A stretch of DNA of 64,000 nt from an uncultured Puniceicoccaceae bacterium (GCA_963933835.1 CAWVVV010000002.1:288001-352000), one strand, 5' to 3'; positions 9,699 to 23,716 are shown, counted from the stretch's first letter. The notes: generated from the sequence alone by a model not told the origin. Numbers and translations are program-made.

Positions 9699-10453
9699 CC
9701 GCCGCGATTGAATTCAAAGAGGTAGCGTTTGCCTACCGACAACGTCAGGTGCTGGAGGGCCTTTCATTTAGCATCTCCCCGCACGAGACGGTCTGTTTTG
9801 TCGGACCCAACGGAGGGGGGAAATCGACCGCGCTAAAGCTGATGCTCGGCCTCCTCAGTCCGCAAAAAGGCAGTGTCCGTATCCTTGGCAAAGCGCCGCG
9901 CCGCGCTCAACGCCGGATTGGCTACATGCCTCAAAGTTTAGAATTTGATCCGCTCTTTCCCCTGACAGTCAAAGATGTCGTGCTCGCCGGGCGTTTGAAC
10001 GGAATGCGCCCCGGGTTTTACTCCCGCAATGATCGGCTGATCGCTGCTGGCTGCCTTGATGAAATGGAACTCAGCGGAGTCGCTGAGCATCCAATGGCTG
10101 AGCTCTCAGGAGGCCAACGTCAGCGGGGTTTGATCGCTCGTGCGCTCGCGGTAGAACCAGAGATCCTCTTGCTCGATGAACCGACGGCGATGGTCGATGC
10201 CCATCTTGAGACACGGCTTCTGGAGAAAATTCGGAGCCTCCACCGCCAGTTGACGATTGTATTGGTTTCTCACGACGCCGCGTTCGTCTCGTCCTTAGTC
10301 GAACGTGTTTTTTGCGTTAACACCACCGTCACTGAACATGCCGCCGAGGGTTTGACGGCGGAGACGATGCATGCGCTCTACGGCGACGCGGTCCAAGTCG
10401 TGCGCCATGATCACGACTGCGCTCACGATCACGGGGAGGGCGGCCATGAGTGA
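9695..10453 (+). CDS. znuC: Zn ABC transporter ATP-binding protein
   Basis: GPNGGGKS, LSGGQRQR, LLLDEP, His-rich C-terminus. Confidence 0.9.
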   Translation: MTAAIEFKEVAFAYRQRQVLEGLSFSISPHETVCFVGPNGGGKSTALKLMLGLLSPQKGSVRILGKAPRRAQRRIGYMPQSLEFDPLFPLTVKDVVLAGRLNGMRPGFYSRNDRLIAAGCLDEMELSGVAEHPMAELSGGQRQRGLIARALAVEPEILLLDEPTAMVDAHLETRLLEKIRSLHRQLTIVLVSHDAAFVSSLVERVFCVNTTVTEHAAEGLTAETMHALYGDAVQVVRHDHDCAHDHGEGGHE

Positions 10454-11284
10454 CCTTTTCTCTGGGCCAAATGGCTTTTTATGGCTTGGGCTCTTGGTTG
10501 GACTGGGGGCAAGTTTTGCCTTTGGCAGCCTCGGCTCAATCATCGTCGCGAAGCGGTTGGGTTATCTCGCCGGTGCGGTGGCGCACGCGTCGCTCGGCAG
10601 TATCGGCGTCTGTCTTTATGCTGAACGAGTATTGGGCTGGGCATGGGTGGATCCACTCTGGTGTGGAGCCCTCCTTTCAATGATTGCTGGTCTACTCATG
10701 GAGGTGATCCGGCGCGTCTCCCCAGAGCGCGAAGATACTTTGCTTGGCGCGCTGTGGGCGGTCGGGATGTCAGTCGGCTTGATCTGCCTTTCGCAGACCC
10801 CGGCTACGCAAATCCATCGAGCTATCTTTTCGGCAACTTGCTCTTGGTTTCGACCGGAGACTTGTGGCGTATCCTGATCCTCGATGCGATTCTCTTGGGA
10901 CTGCTTGGCGCCTATTATCCGATCTGGCAGGCCTCTGCTTTTGACGAGGAGTTTGCCCGCCTGCGCGGAGTGAAAGTGGAACTCTTTTCGGCCCTCTTTA
11001 TTGCCCTTGTGAGCCTCAGTGTAGTCCTGCTCTTGTCAGTTGTTGGTCTGCTCTTGGTCGTGGCTTTGATGACGCTGCCAGCCTCGGCTGCTAGCCGGGT
11101 GACGAAGTCGCTTGGAGGTATGATGATCGGCGGTGTTGTGATTTGCGCCATCAGTGTGGTCTCGGGCCTAGCGCTGAGTTATGCCACCGATTGGCCTTCG
11201 GGTCCTTCGATCGTCATTTTTTCTGCCGTGATGTACTTCGCCTTTGCTCAGTTCGGGAGCTGGCGCAGCCGGCGGCAGGCATAA
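10446..11284 (+). CDS. znuB: Zn ABC transporter permease; frameshift in C run near 10798-10801
   Basis: AGAVAHASLG, SYLFGNLLLV, FDEEFARLRG, PSGPSIV split across two frames. Confidence 0.85.
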
Positions 11285-17956: not shown

Positions 17957-18466
17957 ATGCATCAGCTGATAGAAGACAACCTCACCTGCCTCGAGCAAGG
18001 CATCCAGTTTCTTGGATGCTTGCCTGCTGAGCTCTACACGACGCCTAGTACGGTGTGTTTTGGTAGCGCAATCGGAGGTCATTTTCGACATAACATTGAT
18101 CACTACCAGCAGCTCCTCGACGGGATCGCGAAGGGCCGCGTGAACTATGATGCTCGCTCGCGAGATATCGAAGTGGAAACGCAGATCTCGGTGGCGATCG
18201 GCGCGCTTTGGTCGCTCAAGGGTGGGCTTTCCGCCCTCACGATTGAAGCCGACGACGGGACCGCGCTCGAAGTCATCATGGATGGCGGGGTTGAGGCGCA
18301 ATCCACGCGTTCCAGCCTTTCGCGCGAACTCCAGTTTCTCATCAGCCACACGATTCACCACTACGCCTTGATCGTGACGATCTCGCAGACCCAAGACTTT
18401 GCTGAATTTCCGGCTGATTTTGGGGTGGCTCCTTCGACGCTGAAGTTTCGCTCCCAATCAGCTTAA
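17957..18466 (+). CDS. DinB-family metalloprotein
   Basis: IGGHFRHNIDHY, VNYDARSR, RELQFLISHTIHHYALI, FGVAPST. Confidence 0.88.
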   Translation: MHQLIEDNLTCLEQGIQFLGCLPAELYTTPSTVCFGSAIGGHFRHNIDHYQQLLDGIAKGRVNYDARSRDIEVETQISVAIGALWSLKGGLSALTIEADDGTALEVIMDGGVEAQSTRSSLSRELQFLISHTIHHYALIVTISQTQDFAEFPADFGVAPSTLKFRSQSA

Positions 18467-18469
18467 GCG

Positions 18470-19201
18470 ATGTGCACCGTTTCTTGGTCTATAGAAAAGG
18501 GCGGATATTGCCTATTCTTCAATCGCGATGAGCAGCTTACGCGCGCACCCGCTGAGGCGCCCATAGAGTGGGCCGATGAGGCAGGCATATTCTACGGCCC
18601 TAAAGATCCGGTCGGCCGCGGAACGTGGATTGGGGTTAATCCTCAGGGATGGACCTCCGCTGTCTTGAATTATTACGACGCGACTATCGAAGGGCTTGAG
18701 AAGCGCCCAAAGAGTCGAGGCGAATTGGTCAGGTCATTGGCACCGTTGACGGATAACCGACTTGTCAAAGCGGCGCTTTCGAAGCTGGCGAAGAAGGACT
18801 TCGCACCCTTTCACTTTTTGCGGGTTTCGCCCACCGGCGAGGGGAGCCTTTGGACCTCAAATGGCAAGAAATTGAGTGCGTCTGTCGTCGCGACGGAAAG
18901 CCTCCCGCTCACGACGTCTTCGGTCGATACCGAGCGGGTGACCGAGCGGCGCAAGGCGATCTATTCCTCCCTGAATGCGGGGGGCGCTACGTCGGCCGAT
19001 TCTCTGAAGATGTTTCACCGCTATTTTGATACTTCTGATCCCGCAGCGAGCGTGAGCATGCGCCGCGAAGATGCAGAAACGGTCAGCCTGTCTGAGATTT
19101 TCGTGAAGGCGAAGCTGATCACGTTCGACTACCACGAACGAGCAGATGAAGGCACGGGGTTTAAGTCGCCGGTTAGCCTGAAGATTCAACGGATCAAATA
19201 G
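18470..19201 (+). CDS. NRDE/TANGO2-family protein
   Basis: MCTVSW...FNRDE, PKDPVGRGTWIGVN, SRGELV, ETVS. Confidence 0.92.
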   Translation: MCTVSWSIEKGGYCLFFNRDEQLTRAPAEAPIEWADEAGIFYGPKDPVGRGTWIGVNPQGWTSAVLNYYDATIEGLEKRPKSRGELVRSLAPLTDNRLVKAALSKLAKKDFAPFHFLRVSPTGEGSLWTSNGKKLSASVVATESLPLTTSSVDTERVTERRKAIYSSLNAGGATSADSLKMFHRYFDTSDPAASVSMRREDAETVSLSEIFVKAKLITFDYHERADEGTGFKSPVSLKIQRIK

Positions 19202-19211
19202 AGCCGCGCGG

Positions 19212-21806
19212 ATGAGATCGATTTGTCGCTGGGTTTGGGTCCTGTATTTCCTCCTCCTGGCAGCCTCTTATCTTGGGCAATGGATCGTATCTGACACCTC
19301 AGCGCTTCCGTCGGGTATGCAAATCTTCGAGGTGCCCGAGCGCTTAGCATCCGGAGAACGAACAGGCCGCTTGATCAAGATGGCCACCTACACGAGTGGG
19401 CCCGATGAAGGACCCACGCTCGTTCTGATCCACGGTAGCCCCGTCGCTTCATCGGCGATGCGAGGCCTCAAGCGTGAATTGGAGAAGGCTCTGCCCGATT
19501 GGAGAATCCTTGTCCCGGACATGCCGGGGCTGGGCGCATCAACGAGCGAAGTAACAGACTACTCGGTCGCGGCGCATGGCTACGCTGTCCTAGATCTGCT
19601 CGATGCGCTCGACGTAGAAGAGGCTCACCTCTTGGGCTACAGCATGGGCGGAGGCGTCATCCTTGAGGTCTCCCGGATCGCGCCGGATCGCATTGATTCA
19701 TTGATCATGGCGTCGGCAATCGGCGTTCAAGCGTATGAGCTTTTTGGATCCTATGAGCTGAACCATTCGGTGCACTGGATGCAGTGGGCCGCGCTGAAAG
19801 GCATCGATCTGCTCGTCCCGCATTTTGGATTCTTCGAGAAGCAGCCCCTGGATTTAGGCTACGCGCGTAACTTTTTGTATACGGATCAAAGACCCCTGAG
19901 CGAGGCACTCAAAAGCTACGTCGGCCCGATGCTCATCCATCATGGCCGGGCGGATAACTTGATCCCGATCCAAGCGGCAAAGGAACACGCCCGCCTCGTG
20001 CCTCAAGCCGAGTTAGAACTCTTCGATGGCGGCCACCTCGATGTGATTTCAAATCCGATGCGCTATGTGGCCCTGTTCGCCGATTTCGTTGCTCGTGCTG
20101 AGGCGGGTGAAGCGACCCTTCGAGCTGAAGCAAGCGCCGAGCGTATCAATGCTGCGGATCAGCCTTTTGTCAGGGACCGCAGTTGGCACTACGAGGGGTT
20201 AGCGCTCTTTATCGTCATCAGTCTCCTCATGGCTGCGACGATGGTCTCGGAAGACCTGACTTGTATTGGCGGAGGCTTACTCGCGGCCAATGGTTTGATT
20301 TCACTCCCAGCAGCCGTTATCGCGTGCTTCCTCGGCATCTTTATTGGCGATCTACTGCTCTACACGGCGGGGAGATCTCTGGGTCGGAGCGCGCTTTCTC
20401 GGAGACCAATGCGCTGGTTCGTTCGCCCAGAGGCTGAGAAACGCGCCGAGGCTTGGTTCGCGCGGCGCGGCGCGGTCATCATCTTGGTCTCTCGGGTTTT
20501 GCCCGGGACGAGGGCGGCGACCTATTTTACCGCGGGCGTGCTGAAGGCTCCTCTTGGACGCTTTCTCCTTTTCTTTGGGGTCGCGGCCGCGATCTGGACA
20601 CCGCTTCTTGTCGGAGGCGCCAGCTTGATCGGGGAGCAGATGCTCAGAGTCTATGCTTCATACGAGGCCTATGCGCTCCCGCTTCTATTGGCGACGGGCT
20701 TATGTCTGTATCTGATCATTGGATACGGAATACCTGCCTTGAGTTGGGGCGGGCGAAGACTGCTTTTGGGTAAATGGAGGCGCTGTACACGCTGGGAGTA
20801 TTGGCCGCTCTGGCTGGTGAATGCACCGGTGTTTATCTACGTCTTGTGGCTTGTCCTTATTCGCTACCGCAAGCCGATGATCTTCACCCTTTCGAATCCC
20901 GGGATGCCGCACGGCGGGTTCATCGGCGAAAGCAAGGGGGATATCTTAGCGAGTATGCCAACCTTTGCCTCACATGTCATCCCATGGGACCGGTGTCCCG
21001 TAGGTGAACCGCTGGATGAGAGAATGGAACGGCTGCGTGCGATTCAGTCGAAGGGTCAGCCTTGGCCAATCGTGATCAAGCCCGACGAGGGTCAGCGTGG
21101 TCTTGGGGTGAGAATTGTTAAATCGGAAGAGGAGGCAAAGGAGACGCTTGGCCACTTGGATGAATCCCTCGTTCTCCAAGAGTTCGTCGATGGCCCTGAG
21201 TATGGAGTATTCTACTACAGGTATCCTGAGGCTGAAAAAGGAGTGATCTCTTCGATCACAATCAAGCAATTGACCTCTGTGACGGGTGATGGGGAGCGAT
21301 CGCTTGAAGATCTTATTTTGGCCGATGATCGCACTGTAGATCGAGCTACCTATTTCCTTGATCAGATGTCTGATGCACTTCTTGAGGTGCCAAAGTTAGG
21401 TGAGCGAGTGCCGTTGGTTGAGCTTGGGACACACTCTCGGGGTGCGACTTTTTTGGATGGAGCTCACTTATTGACAGACGAGCTGCTTGAGGCAGTTGAA
21501 AAGATTTCGCGCTCGTATGAGGGATTCTACTACGGGCGCTTCGACTTTAAGGCACCATCAGAAGTTGCCCTTCGCGCAGGGCAGGGCCTAAAAATGATTG
21601 AGTTGAATGGTCTGACGTCAGAGCCGACCCACATTTACGCGCCGGGTGCGTCGCTCTTCACGGGGTGGAAGACACTCATGATCCATTGGCACATCGCGAT
21701 TCGAATCGGGATGCAGAATGAACGGGCAGGGATGAAGCCGTCGGCAGTGAAGGACTTTATTCACTGGTGGTGGCTGAGCTATCACCGCCAGAAAAACAAG
21801 GGCTAA
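19212..21806 (+). CDS. Alpha/beta-hydrolase + DedA/VTT + ATP-grasp fusion protein
   Basis: Hydrolase: LIHGSP, PDMPGLG, GYSMGG, HGRADNLIP, GGHL. DedA: SEDL, IGDLLLY, SRVLPGTR. ATP-grasp: IKPDEGQRGLGV, LQEFV, GRFD, IELNG. Confidence 0.85.
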   Translation: MRSICRWVWVLYFLLLAASYLGQWIVSDTSALPSGMQIFEVPERLASGERTGRLIKMATYTSGPDEGPTLVLIHGSPVASSAMRGLKRELEKALPDWRILVPDMPGLGASTSEVTDYSVAAHGYAVLDLLDALDVEEAHLLGYSMGGGVILEVSRIAPDRIDSLIMASAIGVQAYELFGSYELNHSVHWMQWAALKGIDLLVPHFGFFEKQPLDLGYARNFLYTDQRPLSEALKSYVGPMLIHHGRADNLIPIQAAKEHARLVPQAELELFDGGHLDVISNPMRYVALFADFVARAEAGEATLRAEASAERINAADQPFVRDRSWHYEGLALFIVISLLMAATMVSEDLTCIGGGLLAANGLISLPAAVIACFLGIFIGDLLLYTAGRSLGRSALSRRPMRWFVRPEAEKRAEAWFARRGAVIILVSRVLPGTRAATYFTAGVLKAPLGRFLLFFGVAAAIWTPLLVGGASLIGEQMLRVYASYEAYALPLLLATGLCLYLIIGYGIPALSWGGRRLLLGKWRRCTRWEYWPLWLVNAPVFIYVLWLVLIRYRKPMIFTLSNPGMPHGGFIGESKGDILASMPTFASHVIPWDRCPVGEPLDERMERLRAIQSKGQPWPIVIKPDEGQRGLGVRIVKSEEEAKETLGHLDESLVLQEFVDGPEYGVFYYRYPEAEKGVISSITIKQLTSVTGDGERSLEDLILADDRTVDRATYFLDQMSDALLEVPKLGERVPLVELGTHSRGATFLDGAHLLTDELLEAVEKISRSYEGFYYGRFDFKAPSEVALRAGQGLKMIELNGLTSEPTHIYAPGASLFTGWKTLMIHWHIAIRIGMQNERAGMKPSAVKDFIHWWWLSYHRQKNKG

Positions 21807-22892
21807 GGAAAGATGCCACGCAGCTGTTTTGCTTTCGCGACGCGCTTGATCCCAAGGGTTTGAGCGGCTTCTCGCCGGGTTAGCCCTAAGCGCTCTTTTT
21901 GGTCTTCGACTTCAGCTCGGGCTTTGTCGAGGAGATCGAAGAGTCTTTGTAGAACCTTCTCGCGGGACCAAAAAAGGCTTTGCAAGCCTTGGACCCATTC
22001 AAAGTAAGAGACGATGACGCCGCCGCTGTTGCAGAGGACATCGGGGATGATCTCGATGTCGCCGCGCTCTTCGATGATCTTGTCTGCTTCGGTTGTGGTG
22101 GGTCCGTTGGCAGCTTCGGCAAGAAAGCGGCAGTTTAGCTTGGGTGCGTTGTCTGCATCAATCACTCGCTCGAGAGCGGCCGGGACGAGGACGGTACACT
22201 TGAGGAGAAGAAGTTCTTCATTCGTGATCGACTCGGCACCTTCGTAGTCTTTGAGAGACCCATACGTATTGACGTGCCGGAGGGCATCGTGGACATCGAT
22301 CCCTTTTGGATTATGGAATGCGCCTGAGACGTAGCTGATACCGATGACGCGATAACCGTAGTCAACAAAACCAAGTGCGGCATTTGAGCCGACATTTCCG
22401 AATCCTTGAATCACGACGCGCGTTTGGACAGGTCGGATACGGTGGCTTTCAAGGTAGCGTTTCACGATATAGGCGACCCCGCGACCCGTCGCTTCTTCGC
22501 GTCCTTCTGAGCCACCAATTTCAATCGGTTTACCGGTTACGATCGCTGGCGTTGAGCAGCCGATGATGTTCGAGTAAGTATCCATCATCCACGCCATGGT
22601 CTGTGGATTTGTGCCGAGGTCGGGTGCCATGATGTCGACGTTGGGGCCAACAAAAGGTAAGACCTCCTGCATGTAGCGGCGGGCGACGCGTTCGCTTTCC
22701 CTCAGGCTGAGTGCTCGGGGATCGATCGCAACACCCCCTTTGGCTCCACCGTAGGGGAGACCGACGAGGGCGCATTTCCAACTCATCCACATCGCGAGAG
22801 CCCCAACTTCACCAACCGTTACGGCAGGGTGAAATCGGACGCCGCCCTTGGTTGGCCCGAGGGCGAGATGATGCTGCACGCGATAGGCCTCC
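21803..22892 (-). pseudogene. gdhA: Glu/Leu/Phe/Val dehydrogenase (glutamate dehydrogenase), N-terminus lost
   Basis: YRVQHHLALGPTKGGVRFHP, GGAKGG, IQGFGNVG, EAANGP, SYFEWVQ; recognisable homology stops near 22892. Confidence 0.85.
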
Positions 22893-23716
22893 AGGCAACT
22901 GCTGAGCGTAATGGCTTTCGAGTACACATAGCGAATGATGCATCAAAGGCCGAAGCGGCTCTTAAAGAAGGTGTTAAGCCGGATATTGTTTGGGTCGCGG
23001 CGGAGCTTGGGGATGATGATGGCTATGAAGTCCTTGAGAAGCTAAGATCATTAGATGATTTTGATAAGCTTCCTGCACTCGTTCTGACGTCTGCTTTTCA
23101 GACCAAGAACAGAGAGCAAGCTTCAAACGATGCACTGAGTTTACTCTTAGCGAAGCCTGCAAATCACCTTGTTCTTGAAGCGGGCTGCGAGGCTCTCCTC
23201 TTTGCAGATGGCCGCAAGATGAACGAGTCAGATCATCAAGAAGAGGCTCCGTCATTAGAGCTCGATGACGAAGATTTAATTGAGGCGAAGGTACGAGCTG
23301 CTTTAACAAATTCTAACAGGCGCAGATTAACCAAGAGCCCATTCGTTGATTACAAAACGTATCTGCCCTTGGATGTGCTCTTAGCGGATTCCCATCGTGC
23401 TCGTGGCGCGACGACTCGACGGGTCCTGAAGCATTTTAATAAGGCAACCAAGGTAGTTCAGAGTGCAAACGAAGTTCTTGATTCATTGGAGAATGCCTCT
23501 TTCGATTTGGTCATACTATCGCATCCCTTGCTCGGATCTGAAGTGAGTCAAGTGACACGTCTAATCCACTAGAAATTGCCTGAAGGTCGCCGGCCAGTGA
23601 TTGTGTCGATGGGGATTGATTACCCTGAAGACTCCGTCGAGGCAGGCATCGATGACCATTTGAGGCTGCCGCTTTCTGTTTCGGCGCTAGGGCTACGCCT
23701 GATTAAGAAGGCGTAG
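22889..23716 (+). pseudogene. C-terminal fragment of a multi-receiver signalling protein with internal TAG at 23570
   Basis: Two degenerate REC domains (GFRVHIA..PDIVWV..LAKP; LDVLLADS..FDLVIL..AGIDDHLRLP); the frame continues past the TAG to 23716; no native start. Confidence 0.7.

Follow-up and report, generated by a model that had tools for sequence, protein, structure and literature searches.

In MprF, and in the fusions that bring it together with DedA proteins, a cytoplasmic enzyme adding an amino acid to a lipid is fused to a flippase. DedA reportedly takes the place of the flippase domain of MprF in fusions for lipid synthesis (PMC10193950; papers are cited here by PMC number, for the available part of each text). 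Aminolipids are synthesized by OlsB/OlsA, by OlsF or by OlsH/OlsI, of which OlsH depends on ATP and OlsI belongs to the alpha/beta-hydrolases (PMC12493201). An ATP-dependent transfer of taurine to the ornithine-lipid carboxyl, giving cerilipin, is known; PMC12971839 describes it as lacking an assigned gene. Di- and tripeptide head groups also occur on lipids, and no enzyme is named for their extension steps in the available portions of PMC12971839 and PMC8433624. The DinB/STL (S-transferase-like) proteins are metal-dependent thiol transferases acting with amidases and efflux (PMC5815605). TANGO2, whose loss leads to severe human disease, resembles the fatty-amide Ntn hydrolases, and its substrate is described as not yet identified (PMC13044924); it has also been put forward as an acyl-CoA binding protein (PMC11867700). 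Homologs of DinB, TANGO2 and DedA are encoded, together with an ATP-grasp ligase, by three genes at positions 17957 to 21806 of a 64,000-nucleotide stretch of DNA (the window) from an uncultured Puniceicoccaceae bacterium (GCA_963933835.1 CAWVVV010000002.1:288001-352000). This module is most likely a lipid synthase-flippase and an aminolipid-tailoring pathway built from known folds. As to its reaction, we lean towards an extension of aminolipids, in which the ligase would add an amine to the aminolipid carboxyl, DedA would flip the product and the hydrolases would edit or recycle it.

Conservation of the gene cluster

The three open reading frames (ORFs) are intact and lie on the plus strand in the order DinB-type (17957-18466, 169 aa), NRDE/TANGO2-family (18470-19201, 243 aa) and hydrolase-DedA-ATP-grasp fusion (19212-21806, 864 aa). 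The ORF calls confirm the co-directional arrangement described in an earlier note made from the DNA alone, the intergenic gaps being 3 and 10 nt long, and the motifs that the note listed (HFRH, HTIHH, MCT, GYSMGG, WEYWP, KPDEGQRG, VTGDG and ELNG) are all present in the translations. The genome is 1.94 Mb in size, with the window on its contig C2, and by profile search each of the three genes is single-copy in it. The DNA of the locus is also present in marine metagenomes. An assembly artefact, considered in the earlier note, was ruled out as the origin of the fusion because its junctions are carried by independent contigs and the fusion recurs in related loci. In run X3, contigs 18481-20496 and 20498-21671 cross both domain junctions, and in run X5 contig 19161-20358 crosses the hydrolase-DedA junction, with no differences listed; these sequencing runs come from two other studies. 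A scan of the locus for promoters and terminators returned signals at shuffle level, and the short contigs of two RNA runs cover no gene of the module beyond DinB and NRDE and are not evidence of transcription.

Homologous loci were collected in several samples. Among 301 genomes of the host's own phylum, 45 ligase matches were found; 39 were kept (E < 1e-30) and 6 weak matches to other ATP-grasp proteins were dropped, and locus counts refer to the 38 loci besides that of the host. The cross-phylum set holds the best 80 of 597 confirmed matches, so that its counts are biased to close relatives; one sequence (L032/L083) is common to both sets. A second phylum sample of 251 genomes around a Rhodothermales genome contained 59 genomes with the ligase, as 33 three-domain fusions, 25 standalone ligases and one fragment, and 20 of 26 standalone Bacteroidota loci were examined. 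Unless stated otherwise, a neighbour is a gene within 6 kb of the ligase, and independent-pairs tests used a FastTree tree.

The linkage of the ligase with NRDE, DinB and DedA, which the earlier note had proposed to check by neighbourhood analysis, is conserved across genomes. DinB and NRDE are both found near the ligase in 20 of the 38 own-phylum loci, 36 of the 80 cross-phylum loci and 13 of the 20 standalone Bacteroidota loci. Since they recur beside it in all three locus sets, the clustering is not due to chance, and the module has been kept together across many bacterial phyla. The three-domain fusion is present in 23/38 own-phylum and 38/80 cross-phylum loci, and the closest relative of the ligase comes from an Opitutales bin. 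Within the cross-phylum set, DedA is beside or fused to the ligase in 78 loci, DinB is present in 50 and NRDE in 44. The NRDE family (PF05742) occurs in 26 of the 301 own-phylum genomes, 24 of them ligase-positive. Split forms were detected in Salinivibrio (VTT, ligase, DinB, NRDE) and in Paracoccus (ligase, hydrolase, VTT), and 23 of 91 ligase loci with full flanks have neither DinB nor NRDE. The core of the module is the ligase with its transporter; DinB, NRDE and the hydrolase have each been lost in some loci. No description of the three-gene module was found in the literature searched, which left out most subscription papers, figures and supplements; the DedA fusion may be among those of Fig. 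5 of PMC10193950.

Some of these loci deserve separate mention. In three of them (L063, L065 and L067, from genomes G195, G276 and G192) the fusion is kept with a catalytically degenerate ligase and with no DinB or NRDE nearby, and this family is possibly a flippase-only remnant. In four records titled Heliobacteriaceae or Bifidobacterium (L084, L093, L108 and L109), the ligases fall among or close to those of Acidobacteriota; judging from this grouping, these records are likely mislabelled bins. At one Planctomycetaceae locus, a cyanophycin-synthetase-like protein (L086:13734-16538, minus strand) is encoded 2.7 kb from the module.

The ATP-grasp domain

The C-terminal domain of the fusion (residues 517-864, 20760..21803) is a WEYWP-type ATP-grasp domain with a hydrophobic N-terminal helix and a VTGDG insert. 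Its matches to ATP-grasp Pfam families are weak (E about 8e-4) and the fold search confirms the assignment. Because Foldseek on the whole fusion returned hydrolases only, the ligase domain was modelled separately, with a predicted local distance difference test score (pLDDT) of 94.5. Foldseek then ranked CphA1 (E 5.7e-11), GshF and CphA2 first, with Ddl appearing from rank 8. In the VIA comparison, ArgX (Z 14.7; root-mean-square deviation 3.7, 222 aligned), LysX (14.6) and CphA tie at Z 14.0-14.7, followed by RimK and Ddl, both at 13.2. A profile of 84 ligase homologs placed CphA2, CphA1 and GshAB at the top. The best structures from the profile and Foldseek searches are 7ta5 (E 1.3e-8), 7wac and 3ln6. 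Identity to the nearest solved structures is 13-18%, and the template modelling (TM) score by query is at most 0.54. Residues K623, R776, D778, E797 and N799 are invariant in the 84 homolog rows, and R629, E663, K685 and H741 are also conserved; we take the invariant residues to be the ATP-binding lysine and the E-x-N metal ligands with R-x-D. This domain belongs to the ATP-grasp amide ligase superfamily, and amide formation is predicted from the modelled fold. It shares the fold, the E-x-N and the R-x-D with the G domain of CphA1/CphA2, with GshF/GshAB and with LysX/ArgX/RimK, and its VTGDG insert aligns in GshAB and CphA. Unlike CphA and GshF/GshAB, it has no Mur-like or GshA domain and carries instead the hydrophobic N-terminal helix and the membrane fusion. 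The family is large, with 1068 clusters at 50% identity for E up to 1e-30.

Some homologs are publicly annotated as D-alanine--D-alanine ligases, and UptA is the best match of the DedA domain. These two facts would suit a role in the cell wall, in which the fusion would combine a D-Ala-D-Ala ligase with a flippase for undecaprenyl phosphate. We consider this very improbable. The fusion is not among the seven matches of the Ddl model TIGR01205 in the host genome (no match at E 0.01), and a separate, full-length Ddl-like gene is present at C5:61712-62593 (223.5 bits, positions 1-317). A plain Ddl, the outcome that the earlier note had set against its own reading, was ruled out on these two grounds. 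The UptA model NF052604 gives the DedA domain 65.3 bits, far under its cut-off of 250; no cell-wall genes are found among the recurring neighbours, and the distribution of the ligase is patchy (39/301 genomes).

Domains and predicted topology of the fusion

The model of the whole fusion reached a pLDDT of 94.9 and a predicted TM score of 0.81. After a basic N-terminus, a hydrophobic helix (about residues 8-26, 19233..19289) would act as signal anchor or signal peptide. It precedes an alpha/beta-hydrolase domain (about residues 68-293, 19413..20090; Abhydrolase_1, E 1.5e-25) with a G-x-S-x-G elbow and the triad S144-D248-H275, which is kept in homologs (S 49/60, D 58/62, H 57/58). The best fold matches of this domain are esterase folds, and it is absent from many homologs of the fusion. 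The DedA/VTT membrane domain (about residues 329-510, 20196..20741) matches PF09335 with E 1.1e-16 and 61.8 bits (cut-off 33.9). It has an acidic S-E-D motif, two re-entrant helices predicted from sequence and DSSP, and an R-x-x-P-G-x-R motif whose arginine pair is present in 112/112 and 111/112 homolog rows. Neither the MprF synthase domain nor LPG_synthase_TM was found in the three proteins.

Topology was deduced from the Lys and Arg (K+R) counts of each segment across homologs, with segment boundaries set by ourselves. By the positive-inside rule, basic segments face the cytoplasm. The mean K+R is 3.4 before the first helix, 0.7 from the first re-entrant helix to transmembrane helix 1 (TM1), 7.6 after TM1, 1.3 (D+E 1.7) between TM2 and TM3, and 6.3 after TM3. 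From this bias, the hydrolase is predicted in the periplasm and the ligase in the cytoplasm, on opposite sides of the membrane as the earlier note had suspected. Many forms devoid of the hydrolase retain a signal-like segment ahead of DedA.

Linkage with aminolipid synthase genes

OlsB- or OlsF-like genes are neighbours of the ligase in 46 of the 80 cross-phylum loci, and in 28 of the 44 with full flanks, for a chance expectation of about 0.3% if one ols locus per 4 Mb is assumed (our estimate). These ols neighbours are of both the two-gene OlsB/OlsA and the fused OlsF types, occur in seven strand and side arrangements plus one fusion, and span at least eight named phyla. The fusion, known from one Akkermansiaceae bin only, is a single hydrolase-DedA-ATP-grasp-OlsB ORF (L137:8486-11761) followed by OlsA. 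All 16 ols-type neighbours tested, and one more distant PlsC-type gene, match Ols/Gls models of NCBIfam, none above the curated cut-offs.

The same association is visible at the level of whole genomes. PF13444 is present in 36/39 ligase-positive and 147/262 ligase-negative genomes of the own-phylum sample (Fisher p 5e-6, overstated because kin are not independent). In the three ligase-positive genomes devoid of PF13444, the ligase is degenerate (G195, G276) or broken (G185). In the second sample, PF13444 lies 3.0-5.0 kb from all 33 complete three-domain fusions. The host genome encodes an OlsF-like bifunctional acyltransferase (C4:136874-138748, L069), its only PF13444 match, which is unlinked to the module and scores 414 bits against NF052615 (cut-off 620).

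The module is thus linked to genes of the OlsB/OlsA and OlsF types, and the cerilipin step is an ATP-dependent amide extension at the ornithine-lipid carboxyl, as proposed here for the ligase. The available portions of PMC11631085, PMC12971839 and PMC12493201 assign no ATP-grasp, DedA, DinB or TANGO2 protein to the Ols pathways. The earlier note had left the conjugate as either a lipid head group or a small peptide; the neighbourhoods favor amino-acid lipids. Among the ligase matches listed (120 of 1377, most of them unnamed) no Gluconobacter appears, and the named ones are Komagataeibacter, Novacetimonas, Gluconacetobacter, an Acetobacteraceae bin, Emcibacter and Janthinobacterium. A general ligase converting glycine lipid to flavolipin by addition of serine was also considered and was ruled out, the ligase being present in 1 of the 14 genomes whose GlsB match exceeds the cut-off.

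Exchange of the transporter

The transporter associated with the ligase is not always DedA. A LysE-type gene replaces it in 10 of the 20 standalone Bacteroidota loci, and an MprF-type LPG_synthase_TM gene replaces it in 9 of 52 loci of a distant ligase clade (L206-L281; the 52 of 78 metagenome loci that reach at least 3 kb). Among five LPG_synthase_TM candidates compared with Pfam, one was above cut-off and three gave weaker matches; the fifth gave none. A ligase that often adjoins a translocator, twice of the lipid-flippase type, most simply makes a lipid. As in MprF and the DedA-MprF fusions, the module is proposed to combine a flippase with a cytoplasmic enzyme for the attachment of an amino acid to a lipid, and its distant homologs adjoin an MprF-type domain. 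It differs from MprF in using ATP-grasp chemistry instead of aminoacyl-tRNA, in its likely acceptor, an aminolipid carboxyl rather than phosphatidylglycerol, and in the addition of a periplasmic hydrolase, DinB and NRDE.

LysE proteins are small-molecule exporters, and their presence beside the ligase is one of the arguments for a soluble peptide or protein ligase. Such an enzyme would produce an exported small peptide or modify a protein C-terminus in the manner of RimK or LysX, the ols linkage reflecting co-regulation only. ArgX, LysX and RimK are indeed among the best fold matches, and the distant clade is found beside amino-acid-modifying enzymes (YqcI/YcgG and DUF1989 in 19/52 loci, an iron redox enzyme in 12/52) and a methyltransferase (15/52). 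The methyltransferase and the iron-containing redox enzyme also occur together, and an MprF-type flippase gene often accompanies either kind of neighbourhood. These neighbours may supply different modified amines, or the ligase family may have several functions. The distant-clade loci may also be separate pathways not described so far. We nevertheless regard a soluble peptide or protein ligase as quite unlikely: the hydrophobic helix with which the ligase domain begins, the DedA and OlsB fusions and the MprF-type neighbours point to a lipid, and no conserved small carrier protein was found among the neighbour clusters.

The DinB-type protein and the redox cassette

The first gene (17957..18466) encodes a protein of the DinB fold, an S-transferase-like four-helix bundle with three conserved histidines, and is a candidate metal-dependent thiol transferase. 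Its DinB_2 Pfam match is under the cut-off (E 0.011) and the fold is supported by an Atlas match (feature score 0.95, TM 0.93) and by a profile match to 3dka (E 0.0011). The predicted metal triad is H45, H131 and H135. These residues and H134 are kept in 70/70 homologs, and H42, R44, Y64, R67, R123 and E124 are conserved as well. The thiol transferases BstA-H, LmbV and EgtB have the same fold and three conserved histidines; compared with them, the DinB of the module has motifs of its own (YDxRxR, RE and FGVAPST) and co-occurs with an Ntn hydrolase and a ligase.

The earlier note had missed a redox cassette that tracks this protein. DoxX, YHS (NF041384) or MsrQ-Rieske genes are found near the ligase in 36 of the 64 full-flank loci with DinB and in none of the 27 without it, and 20 of 32 ols-linked loci carry the cassette. 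In L042 and L045, DinB, NRDE, DoxX, YHS, the ligase, two OlsB and OlsA follow on one strand. An MsrQ-like ferric reductase-Rieske fusion (for example L082:12709-14565) with small conserved partners is near the ligase in 14/80 loci, and AhpC/TSA, DM13, CRP and ECF-sigma genes adjoin Bacteroidota loci. The DoxX and YHS homologs of the host are unlinked to the module (C2:150636-151097, C1:361263-361472, C6:45866-46402 and C1:257088-257603). On the tree, the DinB-redox association has the same direction and is not significant (5-7 independent pairs).

Because the redox cassette tracks DinB, a module for thiol conjugation has to be weighed. The product of the ligase would then be a thiol anchored in the membrane, formed from an acyl-amino acid and cysteine (or another thiol). 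DinB would couple this thiol to electrophiles, and NRDE would release the conjugate for export by DedA or LysE; the DoxX, YHS and MsrQ-type partners would return the thiol to its reduced state. The counts above, the AhpC/TSA and other neighbours of the Bacteroidota loci, the known partnership of DinB/STL transferases with amidases and efflux, the presence of GshF among the closest structures of the ligase and the redox homologs elsewhere in the host genome are all in line with this scheme. It appears unlikely to us, given the full-flank ligase loci devoid of both DinB and NRDE, the lack of significance on independent pairs, and the available text of the reviews PMC11631085 and PMC12971839, where no thiol aminolipid is found. 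NHISS-linked clusters for thiohistidine dipeptides were also considered; in the available text on them (PMC13674229), NRDE, TANGO2 and DedA are not mentioned.

The NRDE/TANGO2 relative

The second gene (18470..19201) encodes an NRDE/TANGO2-family protein, a predicted Cys-Ntn hydrolase with C2, N18-R19-D20-E21, R25, N67 and R83-G84 as candidate functional residues. It matches PF05742 with E 2.8e-16 and 60.9 bits (cut-off 22.6). C2 is found in all 63 homolog rows holding a residue at that column; in a 33-row alignment, C2, R19, D20 and E21 are invariant and N18 nearly so. The profile matches human TANGO2 (8sv7, E 1.9e-16), with Cys2 and the NRDE motif kept. Counterparts of the TANGO2/NRDE residues Cys2, Asn25, Arg26 and Asp27 are present. 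PMC13044924 also points to an oxyanion Asn157 and to Lys166. In the profile alignment, the human Asn157 is aligned with a serine in the subfamily of the module, and no residue pairs clearly with Lys166. The Shewanella heme-trafficking homolog HtpA (SO0126), which also shares PF05742, Cys2 and the N-R-D-E motif, has a different gene context: it adjoins a metal transporter and is transcribed alone (PMC10470608). The link to TANGO2 is thus looser than the earlier note suggested. Another PF05742 gene with a much higher score (G223:C66:4298-4792), in a genome devoid of the ligase, probably represents a more TANGO2-like subfamily, judging by that score.

Neighbouring genes in the window

The module is flanked upstream by an RNA methyltransferase and on the other side by a convergent, glutamate-dehydrogenase-like ORF (21803-22927, minus strand), which overlaps the stop codon of the fusion by 4 nt. 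This ORF apparently lacks its N-terminus: it is directly preceded by an in-frame stop, and its start is overlapped by a plus-strand ORF (22829-23572); it seems to be a truncated gene or an assembly join. Further upstream, a gene read as a metal ABC-transporter permease (10371-11284, plus strand) is split into two overlapping frames (10371-10877 and 10643-11284), an apparent frameshift or sequence error.

Proposed pathway

The extension of aminolipids is favored here because it accommodates the ols linkage and the OlsB fusion, the flippase swaps, the predicted topology, the amide-ligase folds, the orphan amide extension of ornithine lipids, the resemblance of TANGO2 to fatty-amide hydrolases and the OlsF-like gene of the host. 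The reactions and substrates that we infer are as follows. On the cytoplasmic side, the ATP-grasp domain would spend ATP on coupling the free carboxyl of an OlsF- or OlsBA-type aminolipid to an amine, which may be an amino acid or resemble taurine. The DedA domain would flip the extended lipid outward, and the periplasmic serine hydrolase may edit or transfer an acyl chain. EgtB and EgtC carry out thiol transfer followed by trimming; DinB and NRDE might supply the amine in a similar way or, alternatively, cleave the amide to recycle the lipid. The pathway of ligation, flipping and release imagined in the earlier note is partly backed, by linkage and predicted topology, its reactions being still inferred.

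Several observations weigh against this proposal. No ols gene is found near the module in the host genome, and such neighbours are limited to 5/38 own-phylum and 0/20 standalone Bacteroidota loci. The linked OlsB-like proteins score 123-155 bits, for an OlsB cut-off of 350. Genome G192 has OlsF and yet a degenerate ligase. Independent-pairs tests for the ols association have the same direction and are not significant (5-7 pairs, median p 0.125-1). The redox cassette tracks DinB more tightly than the ols genes do, which a simple lipid model does not explain, and LysE exporters would fit a soluble product equally well. The distant clade has ols neighbours in 1/52 loci and DinB or NRDE in none of the 52. 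Finally, 12 of the 25 standalone Bacteroidota genomes lack both OlsF and a strong match to PF13444, so the module extends beyond the genomes that have those synthases.

These 12 genomes would be expected if the module were itself an alternative aminolipid synthase, its ATP-grasp domain acylating an amino acid with a free fatty acid like the ATP-dependent OlsH and its hydrolase being an O-acyltransferase like the alpha/beta-hydrolase OlsI (PMC12493201). This is rather improbable, since the ligase is found beside OlsB/OlsA or OlsF and not instead of them, the hydrolase is predicted to be periplasmic, and 11 of the 12 genomes have GH3 genes (G384 has none). In these genomes GH3 may only mark a lineage: it occurs in 12/13 ligase-positive, OlsB-negative genomes and 3/20 controls, a difference of little weight because the controls were unmatched by lineage. 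No GH3 gene is found in the host genome.

In a further reading, which we consider doubtful, the module would produce and recycle a thiol anchored to a lipid, equivalent in the membrane to glutathione or mycothiol. The ATP-grasp domain would add a sulfur-bearing amine to the aminolipid and DinB would conjugate electrophiles or install the sulfur. The TANGO2 relative would cut the acyl-amide, the flippase would export the product, and DoxX and YHS would keep it reduced. To our knowledge no ATP-grasp lipid ligase is known so far, and this reading, if true, would give the first; it would also make the TANGO2-family proteins acyl-amide hydrolases.

Significance

The ligase family, often labelled as D-Ala-D-Ala ligase, is a widespread candidate for the orphan amide extension of aminolipids. 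The presence of a TANGO2 relative beside acyl-amide lipid synthesis provides defined compounds to try on the TANGO2 family. If the module does extend aminolipids, it would name the cargo of an unstudied DedA subfamily.

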